A DNA stretch of 64,000 nucleotides, taken from positions 32,001-96,000 of the forward strand of contig CAVPIW010000010.1 of assembly GCA_963705105.1 (NCBI GenBank). The letters run 5' to 3'. Below are positions 15,001 through 21,000 of this stretch, piece after piece. Position 1 is the stretch's first letter, and each line of letters begins with the position of its first letter. Position numbers: made by a program. This stretch comes from an uncultured Nitrospiraceae bacterium. GTDB lineage: Bacteria; Nitrospirota; Thermodesulfovibrionia; Thermodesulfovibrionales; Dissulfurispiraceae.

Positions 15001-18000
15001 AGAGCTCCTTTTCGTGCCAGTAGGTCTTCAATCAGAAATGCCGATGCTGTGAGTACGGTGCACCGTTATGAGGACCCGGACCCTTTCTGCCGCATGGCTG
15101 CCGACTTTTCTTCAAGGGACGCCCTTGTCTTGTCCCGGAATGAATCAAGTGCGGCTGCGATTTCAGGATACTTGATCGACAGTATCGAGCAGGCGAGATA
15201 GGCCGCGTTTTTTGCACCGTCGATCGCCACTGTCGCCACGGGAACGCCCGGGGGCATCTGCACCGTCGAGTACAGGGCGTCGACACCGCCGAGGGCGCCG
15301 GACTTGAGGGGGACGCCGATGACGGGCAGGGTGGTGTGGGCCGCGATCACCCCTGCAAGGTGTGCTGCCATGCCCGCGCCGGCGATGAGTACCTCGATGC
15401 CGCGCTCACGGGCCGTCCTGGCATAGGCGGCCGTCTTGTCAGGAAGGCGATGGGCCGAGCTGATATCGATCTCGAAGGGCACTCCCATCTCCCTGAGCAC
15501 GTCCGCCGCCTTTTCCATGACCGGGAGGTCGCTCTCGCTCCCCATGAGGATTCCAACGAGTGGTTTCTGCATCCTGTCCTCCTGACGCAAGATTCAAAAT
15601 TCGATCTATTTTACCCCACTTGTGTCCAAAATATTAACCCGGCAACAGAACGGAAGAATTGCACCATGCCTTGTCATTCCGGCTTGTCCTCGCAGGGTCG
15701 AGGATAGGTCCGGAATCTTACGTGCGGGGTTGCGGCAATGACAATGGCGCCGGCAATTATGAAATAATCGGCGGTGTAAGAGGTGCGGCGAGATTTTGGA
15801 GACGGGGATAGGGTGTGGTTTCTGAAGCAAAATTCACGGGTACTGTGAACGGCGGCGGGAGCCGAAAAAGAGAATTCGATAGGATCCGGGAGCGGTCCCC
15901 CGGATCCCTTTACCTTTTTGTTGCATGCAAAGGCGGGACAAAGTGCCTCAAAGCCTTGCTGATAGCGAGCATGATTATTTGAAATGGGACATTCGGGATC
16001 TCATCTTTTATGCGATCAACCATAGGCCTTAAATGATCCTTATGGGACGGCATAGGTTTCGCAGCACCAAGGCTTTTCGGCATCTTCGCCCCGCCTTTCC
16101 GGATGTCTTATTGCAACGATAAGGTTTATTCTGACTAACCGCTCATTCTCATCGCCTTGAGGCGGGCGATACGCTCCTCCATGGGGGGGTGGGTGCTGAA
16201 GAGCTTCATGAGCGCGCCGCCCGAGAGGGGGTTGACGATGAACATGTGGGACGTGGCCGGGTTTGCATTCATCGGGACGCGGTGAGCGGCCACTTCGAGC
16301 TTTCCGAGCGCATTGGCGAGACTCATCGGGTTGCCGGCGATCATCGCGCCGCCTTCATCGGCGCCGAACTCCCTCGACCGGGATATGGCCATCTGCACGA
16401 GCATCGCCGCGATGGGGCCGACGATCATCATGACGATCGTGGCGACGGGGCTGCTTCCCTCGTCATCGTCGCTCCGTCCTCCGCCGAAGATCATCGCCCA
16501 CTGCGCCATCTGGGCCAGATAGCTGATGGCTCCCGCGATGGCGGCGGCGATGGTGCTCACAAGGATGTCGCGGTGCTTGATATGGGCGAGTTCGTGAGCG
16601 ATGACGCCCTCCAGCTCATCCCTGGAGAGAATTTTCATAATGCCCGTCGTCACCGCGACGGTGCCGTGCTCGGGGTTTCTTCCCGTGGCGAAGGCGTTCG
16701 GCTGGTCCTGGTTGATGATGCAGACCTTGGGCATGGGCAATTCGGCCCTCTGGGCAAGCCTCCTCACGATGTTGTACAGGTCCGGCGCCTCCGACTCCGT
16801 CACCTCTCTGGCGCCGTACATCCTGAGCACGATCTTGTCACTGAACCAGTAGGCGATGAAGTTCATGCCGAAGGCCATGACGAGAGCCATTGTCATGCCC
16901 GTTCTCCCGCCGATAAATGCGCCCACCATGACCAGCATCAGTGTGAGCGTGACCATCAAGAGCATTGTTTTGAAACTGTTCATTCTTACCTCCTGTCGGT
17001 TCCTCGCATAAAAAAACCTTTACCAGCGGTCAGAGCGACGCGGTAAAGGTCTCGCTTGTTAGGGTCCCTAACTCAATGGTACCGGTCCGCCTGACACAGA
17101 CGGACGTGCTGACGATCACCATCGATTCAGCTACTCCCCTTTATGATTCATAGTATCCGAATAAATGTACTGTTGTCAAGGGATTGATCGGGCCTGTCAC
17201 GACTTCGGGGCAGGGCGGATGCCGATGGCTTCGAGCTCTTTGATCACCATCGCGACAAGGGTATCGATCCCTGACTGTATCGTCCCGGACAGATCGAGAC
17301 CCGTGTCGATCCGCTCCGGCTCTATCCCGATGAGCACGATGTGCCGGGGCATCCGGTCGGTGATCTGCGCGACGGCCAGGAGGTCCGACAGACCCAGTTG
17401 ATGGGGCGATATCTTGCTCGACAGGAAGACCGGTACGTCCTTGCCCTCGAGCCTGACGATCGTCCCCGGCGGGTTCCCGGACTTCACGACGTCGACGATG
17501 ATGACGTTCTCTTTGTCCTCAATGTACGGGAGAAGCTCCAGCCCCATGGTGCCGCCGTCGATCACCTCGACGTCGTCGGGCATATGGTATGCCGCGAGCA
17601 GTTTCTCTATGACACGGACACCGGCGCCCTCGTCCATGAGGAGGATATTGCCGATGCCGAGAATGGTGACAGCCATCAATTTTATCCTCCCTGTGGGGTC
17701 AGGTCTTGAATATTGACAATTGACCGTGCTCTGTTATGCAATCAATATTCAAGACCTGACCCCATAAAAGAGGCAGGCCCGGGCCTGCCTCTTCAGAGTA
17801 TACGCGATGCGTGTGCGTTTCTAAAAGGCCTTGACCTTCACGATCTCCCGGCGCTTAGTGTCGACCATGTGAATGGCGCAGGCGAGGCAGGGGTCGAAGG
17901 AATGGATGGTCCTGAGGACTTCGAGGGGGCGCTCCGGATCGGCAACGGGGTTGCCGACCAGTGACGCCTCATAGGGCAGCATCTCGTCCTTGTCGCTCCT

Positions 18001-21000
18001 CGGCCCGGCGTTCCACGTCGAAGGGACGACGCACTGATAGTTCTTGATCTTGCCGTTGTTGATGACGATCCAGTGGGAGAGGACACCCCTCGGCGCCTCA
18101 TGGAAGCCTACACCCCTCTGCTCGCCCGTCGGGAAATTGGGACGGTTGTATGTCGTCGTGTCTCCCTTTCCGACGTTGTCGATGAGCAGCTGCCACTGCT
18201 TCCCGAGGCTCTCATACATCACGGCGCACCGGACGGCACGGGCGGCGATCCTGCCGATCGTCGAATGGAGGGCGGCGACAGGGATCTTCGCCTTGGCGAG
18301 GCTGCCCACCGTCGCCAGGACATGGTCGACGTACTTTTTCGTCGGTCCGTGGCCCGCGGCATACATGCACAGGACGTTCGCCAGCGGTCCTACCTGGGCG
18401 GGCTTGTCATAGAAGGTAGGCGCCTTCACCCATGAGTATCTCCCGTTGTCCTGGAAGTCAGTATACTTCGGAACAGTCTCCTCTTCCCAGGGGTGGCGGT
18501 TCCAGTTCCCGTCGTACCAGGCGTGCTTGATCGCTTCCTTGACGCCTTTCTTGAAGTAGTCGTCCTGAAAACTCTTGATCGGCTTGAATGTGCCGACATC
18601 GCCGTTCTCGATGAATCCTCCCGGCAGGTCGAAGACGGTCCCCTTCGTGTCGAGGGGAAGGTCGGGGACGCAGAGGTAGTTCGTCACGCCGGCGCCGTAT
18701 TTCGTCCAGTCGGCATACATGGCCCCGACGGCGCAGACGTCCACGAGGAGGACGTCCTTGACGAAATCGCCGATCTGGTCGATGTGCTCCTTGATTTTGA
18801 AGAGTCGTTCCACGGTGAGCGTTGACGGGCTGTCCAGATTGATGGGGTTTGCCACGCCACCGACGGCGAAGTTCTGGAGCTGCGGGGTTTTACCGCCGAG
18901 GATGCCGGGGATCATGTTGATCTTTCTCTGGAACTCCAGCGCCTGGAGGTAGTGGGCCGTCGCGAGGAGGTTCACCTCGGGCGGCAGTTTCATGGCCGGG
19001 TGGCCCCAGTATCCGTTGTCGTATATGCCGAGCTGACCGGAGCCGACAAAGGCCTTCAGCCGGTCCTGTGTCGCCTTCATCACCTTGTAGTTGTTCAACG
19101 GCCACGGAGACAGGCTCTCGCCGAGCTGGGCCGCCTTTTTCGGGTCCGCCTTCAGGGCCGAGACGATATCGACCCAATCAAGGGCGCAGAGATGATAGAA
19201 GTGGACGATATGGTCGAACACGGCATGGGACGTGATGATCATGTTGCGGATGTACTGCGCATTCAGGGGAATTTCCATGTTGAGCGCATTCTCTACCGAC
19301 CTCACCGAGGCCAGCGCATGGACGGATGTTCAAACGCCGCAGATGCGCTGGGCAAACACCCAGGCGTCGCGCGGGTCCCTACCCTGCAGGATCACCTCGA
19401 TGCCTCTCCACATCTGTCCCGATGACCAGGCGTTGGTGACTTTGCCCCCGTCGATTTCACAGTCTATACGGAGATGGCCCTCTATTCTCGTGATCGGATC
19501 AATGGTGATTCTTTTACCCATATATTCCTCCTATATTTATGCGTGCCTGAGATCAGGCAGCACAGGCACTTTCTTGACGATTATGAGGTATCCCATAATC
19601 TCGATCGAGATTATCCCAAGGGTGATCATAATCTCGCCGAATGACGGGAAGTACAGCCACTCCGTTCCGGGGTTGAACCCGACCAGGTAGGCATTGAACC
19701 GGTAGATCGCTCCTGCCAGGAGCATGAGCGCCGATGAGATGAAGAGCGACTGCGGCTTTGCCCTGCCGGACGGGGCGAAGAGCATGAGCATGGGGATGAT
19801 GTAGAGGATGTTCTCGAGGAGGAACATATTCCCCTTGAGATCGCCCTTGAAGGCGAGGCCGAGCTGTCCCCTCACGAGAAGGTCCCCGAAACGGATCGCG
19901 AGATAGACGGCGATCAGCCAGGGGATGATGCCGGCGATTTTTCTGAGGATCGGTGTCTCAAAGGGCCGCTTCAATCCCACCGAGGAGATGACCGATTCCA
20001 GGACAACAGTGGAATACCCCATGGTGACGACGGAGATGATGAACAGGAGCGGGAGAAATCCCGTGTGCCAGAGCGGTGAGAGCTTGCTCCCGGCGATCAG
20101 CAGGACCGACCCCAGCGAAGACTGGTGCATCGTCGGCAGCAGGATCCCGAGGGCGATGAATACGAAGATGAACTTGTTGAGTGTCTTCCGCAGGTTGTCC
20201 GCTTTGGTCTGCTCGAGGTAGGCAGGGGCCATCTCGATCCAGAGGACGCCCGTATAGAGGGCGATGCAGAGCGCCACCTCCAGGAGGACGGAATTGACGT
20301 TGATATACTGCGGCAGAAAGACGTTGTACATCTGCCAGTAACGGCCGATGTCGACAAAGACCGAGACGGCCGCCATCGTGTATCCGAAGAGGCTCGTCAG
20401 CACGGCGGGCCTGATGAGGGGATGATATTCCCCCTTGTTGAGGACATAGACAAGGATCGCCATCGCATAGCCGCCGCACCCGAGGGCCGTTCCCACGACG
20501 ACGTCATAGGCGATCCAGATGCCCCAGGCATAGCCGTCGTTCATGTTCGTCACGGCGCCGATGCCGTAAATGAACCTCTTGGCGAGATAGTAGGCGGCGA
20601 CGAGAGCGAATACCATGAGGACCATAAAGGGTTTCGTCAGGATTTTACCACCGATCGGTTTGCTTTCCTCCATACAGTCTCTCCTTTATCTCGATAGCCT
20701 ATTTGTGGTGATCGTCGTCGTGCTTCTTCGTGCTCCTGTATGCGGCGAAGAGGAGCCCGGAGAAGACGGCGACAGGGGCGATAAACCCCGTGTAAATGCC
20801 ATGCTGGATTTTCTCGGACAGGACGGCGTCCGATTTATCGGGAAGCATCGGCAGTCCGAGCTTGTCGAAGGGCACGCTCGCAAGCATGAGGTACTGGGTG
20901 CCGCCGCCCTCCTTCTCCCCGTAAATGTGTTTCTGATAGACAGGCACCTCTCTCCTGGACGTGAAGTTCGACTTGATGTGCTGGACAGGATAGTCGTACC

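Follow-up and report, generated by a model that had tools for sequence, protein, structure and literature searches.

A predicted nickel-iron-bridging selenocysteine in the large subunit of a Hyb-type uptake hydrogenase of an uncultured Nitrospiraceae bacterium

Does the UGA inside the hydrogenase large subunit gene of this uncultured Nitrospiraceae bacterium end the protein, or does it encode selenocysteine (Sec)? The gene lies in a 64,000-nucleotide stretch of one contig, which is called the window here (Table 1). When 19521..17821 of the minus strand was translated with TGA as U, a chain of 566 residues with a single U at residue 64 was obtained. In the N-terminal nickel motif, RxCGxC, this U takes the place of the second cysteine. 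No further stop codon or frameshift is present across the 566 codons, and an AGGAGG sequence lies 7 nt 5′ of the ATG. With translation table 11, the frame is split into an ORF of 63 amino acids (19330..19521) and another of 494 amino acids (17821..19305). The C-terminal DPCLACAIH motif is followed by a 15-residue tail, which is presumably removed by the HybD protease as in other members of the family. The other 502 codons are intact; E14, D103, the arginine of the PRG motif, and DPCxxCxxH are all retained (residue names as used in the relevant part of PMC5902676). A preliminary description of this locus had given the same 566-codon frame with one TGA at codon 64 and a DPCLAC C-terminus, and the re-translation agreed with it. 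The UGA is almost certainly a Sec codon, which is by far its best reading. Very probably, the gene encodes the large subunit of a periplasmic Hyb-type uptake hydrogenase whose UGA 64 is recoded to a Sec bridging Ni and Fe.

Table 1. Features of the hydrogenase locus, with positions counted along the window
Feature	Position	Strand	Evidence or remark
Small subunit (HybO-like), Tat signal	21644..22783	-	TIGR00391 hydA, 453.8 bits (cut-off 179.5)
HybA-type ferredoxin-like Fe-S subunit	20699..21640	-	NF008134, 435.1 bits (cut-off 263)
HybB-type integral membrane subunit (NrfD-like)	19537..20673	-	NF008133, 530.1 bits (cut-off 450)
Hydrogenase large subunit (HybC-like)	17821..19521	-	566 codons, one in-frame UGA; NF007778, 875.3 bits
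N-terminal Ni-binding motif RICGVUTSVH, codons 59-68	19318..19347	-	aligns with Hyd-2 RICGVCTTTH
UGA codon 64, bridging-ligand position, predicted Sec	19330..19332	-	translation and alignment
SECIS-like hairpin, 9 bp, 3-nt loop GGU	19295..19315	-	loop 23 nt after the UGA
C-terminal Ni-binding motif DPCLACAIH, codons 543-551, all cysteine	17869..17895	-	aligns with Hyd-2 DPCMACAVH
HybD/HupD maturation endopeptidase	17197..17679	-	TIGR00140, 162.2 bits (cut-off 151.8)

What type of hydrogenase is this? The genes are arranged in the order small subunit, HybA, HybB, large subunit, and HybD. Thus, the HybA and HybB genes sit between the two hydrogenase subunit genes, and these two subunits are present in place of a b-type cytochrome. 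All five parts of the operon proposed in the preliminary description were recovered by profile search, and its best NCBIfam match for the large subunit (hydrogenase 2 large subunit, 874 bits) was found again with practically the same score, the next NCBIfam match reaching 510.7 bits. Both hydrogenase subunits fall just below the equivalog cut-offs for hydrogenase 2 (Hyd-2): 875 versus 969 bits for the large subunit, and 528 versus 659 bits for the small subunit with NF007779. The Tat signal of the small subunit was detected with TIGR01409 (27.1 bits; cut-off 16.7), and the small subunit gene ends in TAA. Among solved structures, the large chain of E. coli Hyd-2, 6en9_L, is closest to the large subunit (E 6.4e-232; residues 1-565 align with 1-566). 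The Hyd-1 chains match more weakly (E 1.4e-148), and the match to the solved [NiFeSe] chains is weaker still (E 3e-78) and broken into two stretches. The protein does not belong to the HysA family, as NF045518 gave 338.6 bits versus a cut-off of 780. Judged from the NCBIfam profiles, the solved-chain matches, and the operon, the enzyme is of the Hyb type (hydrogenase-2-like, Group 1c) and would be a membrane-bound, periplasmic, H2-uptake [NiFe] hydrogenase resembling that of E. coli. The E. coli HybOABC enzyme (Group 1c; PDB 6EN9, 6EHQ) has the same operon parts from the Tat-signal small subunit to HybD and shares the ligand positions, Glu14, Asp103, the canopy Arg, and the C-terminal Asp. The two differ in that residue 64 is specified by UGA here and by a Cys codon there, and that, within the window, hybD is not followed by hybE/F/G as in the E. 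coli hyb operon.

The metal ligands of E. coli Hyd-2 are Cys61, Cys64, Cys546, and Cys549 (given in PMC5902676). Because the large subunit aligns 1:1 with the E. coli protein, U64 matches Cys64. The earlier assignment of the UGA as Sec in place of the second N-terminal cysteine, the bridging ligand, is therefore retained as a prediction. A selenolate would take over from the cysteine thiolate as the bridge between Ni and Fe, with Cys61, Cys545, and Cys548 as the remaining three metal ligands; this placement follows from the alignment of U64 with Hyd-2 Cys64 and from statements in the literature. The canonical [NiFeSe] hydrogenases (Group 1a; D. vulgaris HysAB, Dm. baculatum 1CC1) likewise belong to Group 1, have one Sec as a Ni ligand, and receive it from the bacterial Sec system, as is predicted here. 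However, their Sec is the first, terminal cysteine of the C-terminal motif (DPUxxC), which reads DPCLACAIH in this protein. In addition, the canopy Asp is a Ser in [NiFeSe] enzymes according to a passage in PMC8020662, whereas residue 103 is an Asp here, aligned with Hyd-2 Asp103.

Can the cell insert Sec? In the same genome, profile searches found selB (362.6 bits), selA (594.3 bits), and a Sec-type selD (317.4 bits), all over their cut-offs, and the selD gene has an in-frame TGA of its own. ARAGORN found 77 tRNA genes, only one of which has a tca anticodon. This canonical tRNA-SeC(tca) is 98 nt long and has a long variable arm and the discriminator G. TGA is the ordinary stop codon of hybD and of a P-type ATPase gene in the window; since hybD ends in TGA, the codon is taken as an ordinary stop in this genome. 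The co-occurrence of selA with the TGA forms discriminates little, because selA is present in 57 of 61 genomes of the family. The UGA at codon 64 would be read as Sec by SelA, SelB, SelD, and tRNA-Sec of the cell, as directed by the hairpin just downstream within the gene.

The hairpin after the UGA, already pointed out in the preliminary description, proved to be real. It folds at -11.9 kcal/mol (z = -3.33), and an equally good fold was reached by 1 of 200 shuffles. A published bSECIS model (section 5 of PMC13188914) has a loop of 3-9 nt, a G in the first two loop positions, a spacing of 16-37 nt, and an MFE at or below -7.5; the hairpin agrees with all four constraints. No match to a SECIS family of Rfam was found in 17000..23000, and an 81-nt segment around the hairpin folds no better than shuffles (z = 0.37). 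The hairpin type of this gene is kept in 19 relatives, three of which were included because the hairpin is visible in them, with 94.1% of cells paired versus at most 50.7% in slid controls. In these relatives two pairs change on both sides, as reached by 8 of 500 shuffles, while in 6 sequences of the same hairpin type the covariation is indistinguishable from shuffles (191/500). The covariation behind this hairpin type is thin, with 2 cells changed on both sides among the 19 sequences. In a paralogous clade (96 sequences), 93.3% of hairpin cells are paired and compensatory changes occur in 4 of 6 pairs; 52 cells change on both sides versus 17.6 in shuffles, a number that none of the 500 shuffles reached. 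Among 162 distinct Sec forms, 153 have GTG as the Val codon at position 9 after the UGA, versus 3 of 17 Cys forms. The MFE of the whole folding window fails to separate the forms (means of -12.1 and -10.6 kcal/mol for Sec versus -11.9 kcal/mol for Cys). Moreover, the hairpin alone is no proof of recoding, because the Cys ortholog L211 bears a nearly identical one.

Is the in-frame TGA common among relatives? In 61 genomes of the family, 60 genes were matched. TGA is present in 36 of them, once in 18 genes and twice in another 18, and in all 36 it is at cysteine ligand codons of the N-terminal motif. The earlier counts of relatives with one, two, or no TGA were thus reproduced in a larger sample. 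The same readings were also obtained for the orthologs at 73% identity (RFCGVUTTVH) and for the Cys orthologs (RICGVCTTVH), and the two-Sec relatives (RIUGVUTTVH) exist as described, the C-terminal motif being all-Cys in every case; no relative examined has a U there. The Cys orthologs at 76-78% identity have TGC or TGT at codon 64. A TGA at codon 64 was found in 162 distinct sequences of relatives across several phyla, although the relatives are not independent of one another and such counts overstate the support. In a sample of 251 Nitrospirota genomes, the TGA form occupies 21 of 26 Hyb-type rows, all of them verified. A pattern scan across genomes found at least 119 species-level Group 1 large-subunit loci with CxxU or UxxU in several phyla; among the matches listed by that scan, 119 of 120 loci are Group 1 hydrogenases.

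The UGA might instead be read as cysteine or another standard residue, by a tRNA-ReC-type Cys tRNA or by near-cognate read-through, and the enzyme would then be all-Cys. ReC tRNAs have a Cys-type discriminator. The sole tca tRNA that ARAGORN found in this genome has the shape of tRNA-Sec and a G at that position, and the presence of selA, selB, and selD likewise argues against Cys insertion, so that this reading is very unlikely. A pseudogene, in which a nonsense mutation at the Cys codon inactivated the hydrogenase, would need one base change from TGC or TGT to TGA. Gene callers store just a 485-aa truncated product (P0003) here, and L210, a relative with an additional TAG, seems to be broken. 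Nevertheless, decay is highly improbable: the frame is otherwise open, the entire operon is intact, the same TGA recurs among the 162 sequences together with a synonymous-site constraint specific to the hairpin, and a diverged strain (contig X2) has retained the TGA, with a synonymous T>C next to it at 19327.

Split hydrogenase large subunits exist, and the VhuU family is among the profile matches. Translation might stop at the UGA and restart at a GTG (19305), so that the large subunit would consist of two pieces, of 63 and about 494 amino acids, like the naturally split VhuA/VhuU. A break within the CxxC motif, however, would remove the bridging ligand. The GTG is the Val codon of the hairpin and lacks a preceding Shine-Dalgarno-like sequence, and the Cys orthologs are single 566-aa chains; a restart is extremely improbable. 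An error of sequencing or assembly at the TGA has next to no chance of being the explanation, even though the assembly consists of 19 contigs and single-base errors occur. Two runs from different studies gave contigs (X1 and X2) that span 19330..19332 and show no difference there among the rows listed, X1 possibly coming from the source sample itself, and hundreds of independent assemblies have the same codon.

Recoding of UGA 64 to Sec being the preferred reading, is such an enzyme new? It had been presented in the preliminary description as a new kind of [NiFeSe] hydrogenase, on the view that the C-terminal cysteine is replaced in all known ones. Neither statement is supported. According to a passage of PMC13582414, an N-terminal CXXU motif was already listed by Baltazar et al. 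2011 (Eur J Inorg Chem; also cited in PMC8020662) for three sequences, two of Group 1 and one of Group 3. Passages in PMC13582414, PMC8020662, and PMC1976440 also contradict the second statement: Sec in an N-terminal CXXU motif was predicted to bridge Ni and Fe (Takano 2026, PMC13582414), purported natural examples of a bridging Sec were mentioned (Evans 2021, PMC8020662), and a CxxU form of a hydrogenase alpha subunit was noted (Zhang 2007, PMC1976440). The review table in PMC13188914 to which the preliminary description had referred gives only UxxC forms for the hydrogenase catalytic (alpha) subunits. The present gene belongs to the N-terminal CXXU variant of Group 1, with the predicted Sec at the second N-terminal cysteine and an all-Cys C-terminal motif. 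The Group 1 sequences of Baltazar 2011 have the same second-cysteine Sec, as far as the citing passage of PMC13582414 describes them; there were two, versus at least 119 species-level loci here. The bridging-Sec variant is thus mentioned only briefly in print, yet it is common in uncultured bacteria. The literature search found no account of this scale, of repeated origins with different hairpins, or of a Group 1 UxxU form.

Among the Group 1 uptake hydrogenases, the N-terminal Sec forms (CxxU and the two-Sec UxxU) probably constitute a large class that extends over many phyla and has been hidden by gene callers. In that case, bridging-Sec enzymes would prevail among the Nitrospirota Hyb-type enzymes (21/26 sampled), where this form would have arisen or been lost about a dozen times, with at least four different SECIS hairpins, and a second, cytochrome-b-linked clade would have Sec at both N-terminal ligands. 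If so, anaerobic H2 oxidation in sediments and in the subsurface would to a large part be selenium-dependent, and nature would offer for study both a selenolate-bridged NiFe site and one with two Se ligands.

How might Sec64 affect catalysis? In an engineered E. coli Hyd-1 variant, C79U, Sec likewise replaces the bridging cysteine of the N-terminal motif, and this enzyme, too, is a membrane-bound hydrogenase of Group 1. According to the relevant parts of PMC8020662, it had 13% of the native H2-oxidation activity, the highest of four Sec variants, and was almost inactive at 10% O2. By analogy with C79U, an enzyme with Sec64 may stay active and have a lower KM for H2. Unlike the enzyme described here, C79U is artificial, with a UAG-programmed, EF-Tu-delivered Sec in an O2-tolerant Group 1d hydrogenase (PMC8020662).

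The Group 4 variants of Takano 2026, as described in passages of PMC13582414, are CXXU, UXXC, and UXXU forms. Like the enzymes here, they have Sec in the N-terminal motif only, with CXXU and UXXU types, and a SECIS hairpin with a G in the apical loop. Cys relatives with SECIS-like remnants and a repeated origin of the variants are also seen in both cases. On the other hand, the Group 4 variants are energy-converting complexes with a frequency of about 0.2% (PMC13582414), while the present protein is predicted to be a periplasmic Group 1 uptake enzyme, and the Sec form makes up the majority of the Hyb-type genes in the Nitrospirota sample.

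The large-subunit gene has an in-frame TGA in the N-terminal nickel motif and an all-cysteine C-terminal motif, as the preliminary description had stated. It was confirmed that the gene is one frame of 566 codons, in which codon 64 is the sole in-frame TGA; a reading with table 11 splits it into two ORFs of 63 and 494 aa. When the TGA is read through, the N-terminal motif is RICGVUTSVH and the C-terminal motif DPCLACAIH, after which 15 residues remain as a tail. An AGGAGG sequence lies 7 nt upstream of the ATG, and the gene is part of an operon with small-subunit, HybA, HybB, and protease genes. 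The top family is the hydrogenase 2 large subunit (875.3 bits; cut-off 969), and the score against the canonical [NiFeSe] family HysA is only 338.6 bits (cut-off 780). In the public protein collection, the product is stored as a truncated call of 485 aa, whereas its Cys orthologs are stored as 566 aa. Contigs from two sequencing runs, each of a different study, span the UGA site with no difference among the rows listed; one of the two (the best match) may be the source sample, and one has a synonymous change 3 nt from the UGA. Contigs X3 and X4 do not cover the site cleanly, and the data sets listed as containing this DNA include no RNA run.

Features in the window (positions within the window)
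Feature	Position	Strand	Remark
Small subunit with Tat signal	22783..21644	-	first gene of the operon
HybA	21640..20699	-	435.1 bits (cut-off 263)
HybB	20673..19537	-	530.1 bits (cut-off 450)
Large subunit	19521..17821	-	between HybB and the HybD/HupD protease
Codon 64 (TGA)	19332..19330	-	predicted selenocysteine
SECIS-like hairpin	19315..19295	-	9 bp, loop GGU
Intercistronic hairpin	about 17695..17763		between hybC and hybD
HybD/HupD protease	17679..17197	-	162.2 bits (cut-off 151.8)
Very large gene	33301..37960	+	apparent frame change near 35995
Two tandem Hsp20/alpha-crystallin genes	53946..54860	-	rejected as selenoprotein

Is the UGA read as selenocysteine (Sec)? In the genome of the window, selA, selB, and selD all score above their cut-offs, and the selD frame likewise contains a TGA. 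There is a single tRNA-SeC of 98 nt, whose variable arm is long and whose discriminator base is G; it is the only tca tRNA among 77. Since TGA is the stop codon of hybD and of the neighbouring P-type ATPase gene, there is no general reading of TGA as a sense codon in this organism. In the family sample, selA was matched in 57 of 61 genomes and the four others also lack a match to a TGA-bearing hydrogenase, although this co-occurrence is weakly informative, since almost all family genomes have selA. Downstream of the UGA, the SECIS-like hairpin folds at -11.9 kcal/mol (z = -3.33; 1/200 shuffles), its loop begins 23 nt after the UGA, and it agrees with all four constraints of the bSECIS model as set out in section 5 of PMC13188914. 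An Rfam scan of 17000..23000 with E up to 10 found neither SECIS nor another credible family, and an 81-nt fold around the hairpin was no better than shuffles. Taken as a prediction, decoding of the codon-64 UGA as Sec is highly probable.

The closest solved structure is E. coli hydrogenase-2 (Hyd-2; 6en9_L, E 6.4e-232), and since the alignment is residue-for-residue over 1-565, U64 falls on Cys64 of Hyd-2. The Ni ligands of Hyd-2 are Cys61, Cys64, Cys546, and Cys549, of which Cys61 and Cys546 are described as thiolates moving with Ni (PMC5902676). According to Evans 2021 (PMC8020662), the ligands divide into two terminal and two bridging ones, C576 being terminal and C579 bridging in Hyd-1, and the Sec of N-terminal CXXU motifs is predicted as a Ni-Fe bridge in Takano 2026 (PMC13582414). 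The assignment of U64 to the Ni-Fe bridging position, which the preliminary description had proposed, is thus well supported by alignment and by these ligand statements, that is, by homology.

Is this Sec form common among relatives? In a family sample of 61 genomes, 60 large-subunit matches were listed; a single TGA is present in 18 of them and two TGAs in another 18, each of these 36 genes coming from a different genome. In all 36 genes, every TGA lies on a Cys codon of the N-terminal motif, and the C-terminal motif is all-Cys wherever it is inside the retrieved DNA. With CxxU, UxxC, and UxxU denoting Sec at the second, first, or both Cys of the motif, these genes comprise three Hyb-type CxxU orthologs, 15 paralog-type CxxU genes, and 18 paralog-type UxxU genes. 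Cys Hyb-type orthologs with 76-78% identity read RICGVCTTVH. In a phylum sample of 251 genomes, 26 Hyb-type rows span codon 64; 21 have a TGA, all verified as CxxU, and five have Cys. One of the 21 (L210, G287:C27:121113-122435) has an extra in-frame TAG soon after the motif, which cuts the open frame to 143 residues, and probably represents a broken gene or an error of assembly. A global scan with a degenerate pattern and one genome per species gave at least 120 loci; in the 120 listed, 119 encode Group 1 large subunits that resemble the window protein and one is a chance match. The 80 titled records among the matches listed are all metagenome bins, labelled as Nitrospirota-type (32), Chloroflexota-type (26), Desulfobacterota or 'delta' (14), Methylomirabilota/Rokubacteria (2), Spirochaetes (2), Nitrospinaceae (1), unclassified (2), and the chance match (1).

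The relatives fall into two clades. Clade A, the Hyb-type relatives, has 57-75% identity to the window protein and is CxxU, plus one UxxU (L165). Clade B, the second and cytochrome-b-linked Group 1 clade, has 45-50% identity and is CxxU or UxxU; in two genomes, its operon encodes the small subunit, the large subunit, a b-type cytochrome, and HupD, and adjoins hypF. The double-TGA genes of clade B (L030-L045, L173-L190, and many scan loci such as L169, G008:C1:1600000-1615000) read RIUGVUTTVH, with two UGAs 9 nt apart upstream of one strongly co-varying hairpin. Several genomes (G030, G034, G047, G054, G009, G028, and G038) have both Sec-form and all-Cys paralogs of the cytochrome-b-linked hydrogenase, and the genome of the window has an all-Cys Group 1 paralog with 47% identity on contig C16. 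Methanococci likewise have paired Sec and Cys isoenzymes; the all-Cys paralog may serve as a selenium-independent backup.

Because the MFE of the whole folded segment did not separate Sec forms from Cys forms, position-specific pair counts were used. In 96 sequences of clade B, a 6-bp hairpin with a 5-nt loop occupies a fixed place and 93.3% of the cells are paired, while slid controls pair at most 60%. Compensatory changes were found in four of the six pairs (AU/UA/GC, GC/CG, CG/UA), and two-sided changes amount to 52 cells versus 17.6 in shuffled data (0/500). With these compensatory changes, the stem-encoded amino acids co-vary: they are A..A in Cys forms, and S..A, C..A, A..S, A..G, T..S, or V..T in Sec forms. 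Clade A has four hairpin types, each tied to different sequence clusters, a pattern compatible with several origins. For the window type, 16 sequences were taken by the protein motif RICGVUTSVH and three were chosen for showing the hairpin; in these 19, 94.1% of the cells are paired versus at most 50.7% when slid, and two-sided change occurs in two pairs only (8/500 shuffles). With six sequences of this type, covariation was like that of shuffles (191/500). At the Val codon 9 after the UGA, GTG is used by 153 of 162 distinct Sec forms versus 3 of 17 Cys forms, with a third-position entropy of 0.28 versus 1.66 bits; these codon figures, like the pairing figures, are descriptive and not independent tests because the relatives share ancestry.

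FastTree trees of 212 and then 251 large subunits, rooted on the 47% paralog of the window genome, require 11-12 changes at the second motif position and 10-11 at the first under uneven sampling, Sec forms coming from scans and Cys forms from the top 120 matches in a database. The window gene was placed among Cys forms with weak support (0.28-0.41), apart from an 18-member CxxU clade and from the sequences with the same hairpin. Its hairpin type and TSVH motif also occur in a CxxU group, which is not its closest relative in the tree. Was the N-terminal Sec/SECIS segment imported from the hairpin-sharing Sec clade? In all 80-residue segments compared, the window protein is nearer to Cys forms, and hence no recombination signal is seen. 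The tree place and the shared hairpin could reflect convergence, an ancient polymorphism, or a poorly resolved tree. A Cys Hyb ortholog with 76% identity (L211, G241:C98:10589-12283; RFCGVCTTVH) has a window-like hairpin at the same place with one base different. A Sec ancestor may have left this hairpin behind, or the stem may be pre-adapted, in line with the remnant or pre-adapted SECIS-like stems suggested in Takano 2026.

The preliminary description had regarded the window gene as a new kind of [NiFeSe] hydrogenase. This was not borne out; N-terminal CXXU Group 1 sequences have been in print since 2011, and the window gene belongs to that kind. In all [NiFeSe] hydrogenases characterised so far, Sec is at a terminal, C-terminal ligand. 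A CxxU hydrogenase alpha subunit was already noted by Zhang 2007 (PMC1976440), and Takano 2026 (PMC13582414) describes N-terminal CXXU, UXXC, and UXXU variants among Group 4 enzymes, terms UXXC and UXXU previously unrecognised, and credits Baltazar et al. 2011 with two Group 1 and one Group 3 N-terminal CXXU sequences. Evans 2021 (PMC8020662) mentions 'purported examples' of bridging Sec and reports that the engineered Hyd-1 C79U has 13% of native activity, a lower KM for H2, and almost no activity at 10% O2. The literature available for this analysis yielded neither a survey of N-terminal Sec forms in Group 1 nor a UXXU form in that group; 'UXXU' and 'hydrogenase' occurred together there only in Takano 2026 (Group 4) and in two reviews. 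Judging from the sequences, N-terminal Sec forms are likely a large and repeatedly evolved class, including Group 1 enzymes with two predicted Sec ligands, and this class was likely hidden by the truncation of gene calls in databases. Since public gene calls truncate Sec-form genes, functional uptake hydrogenases have probably been under-counted, and a need for selenium missed, when hydrogenases were surveyed or metabolism was reconstructed in Nitrospirota, Desulfobacterota, and Chloroflexota. A natural bridging-Sec enzyme, if real, would be a counterpart in nature to Hyd-1 C79U and would allow a test of whether selenium, besides tuning the proton-accepting ligand, also tunes the metal-metal core. 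The Group 1 UxxU forms raise the question of one SECIS hairpin serving two UGAs 9 nt apart.

A few other features of the window were noted. The strong symmetric hairpin between hybC and hybD gave the best Rfam matches of the 17000..23000 scan, which are weak miRNA-model matches on both strands; it is probably an intercistronic, terminator-like or attenuator-like stem. Seven single-TGA frames in the window were compared with Pfam for further selenoprotein genes, and none is a selenoprotein. The candidate at 53946..54860 has matches to Pfam PF00011 in two stretches and was rejected as two tandem genes in the same frame with a TGA stop between them. The very large gene on the forward strand has its apparent frame change inside a GGCGGCGGCG run, and the peptide continues smoothly across it; the change may reflect an indel from the assembly or a genuine frameshift. 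No Pfam family scored on this gene with E up to 1e-5. Its downstream part has repeated FN3-like segments and an HCHxxxH...M-like stretch, which presumably resembles a copper site.
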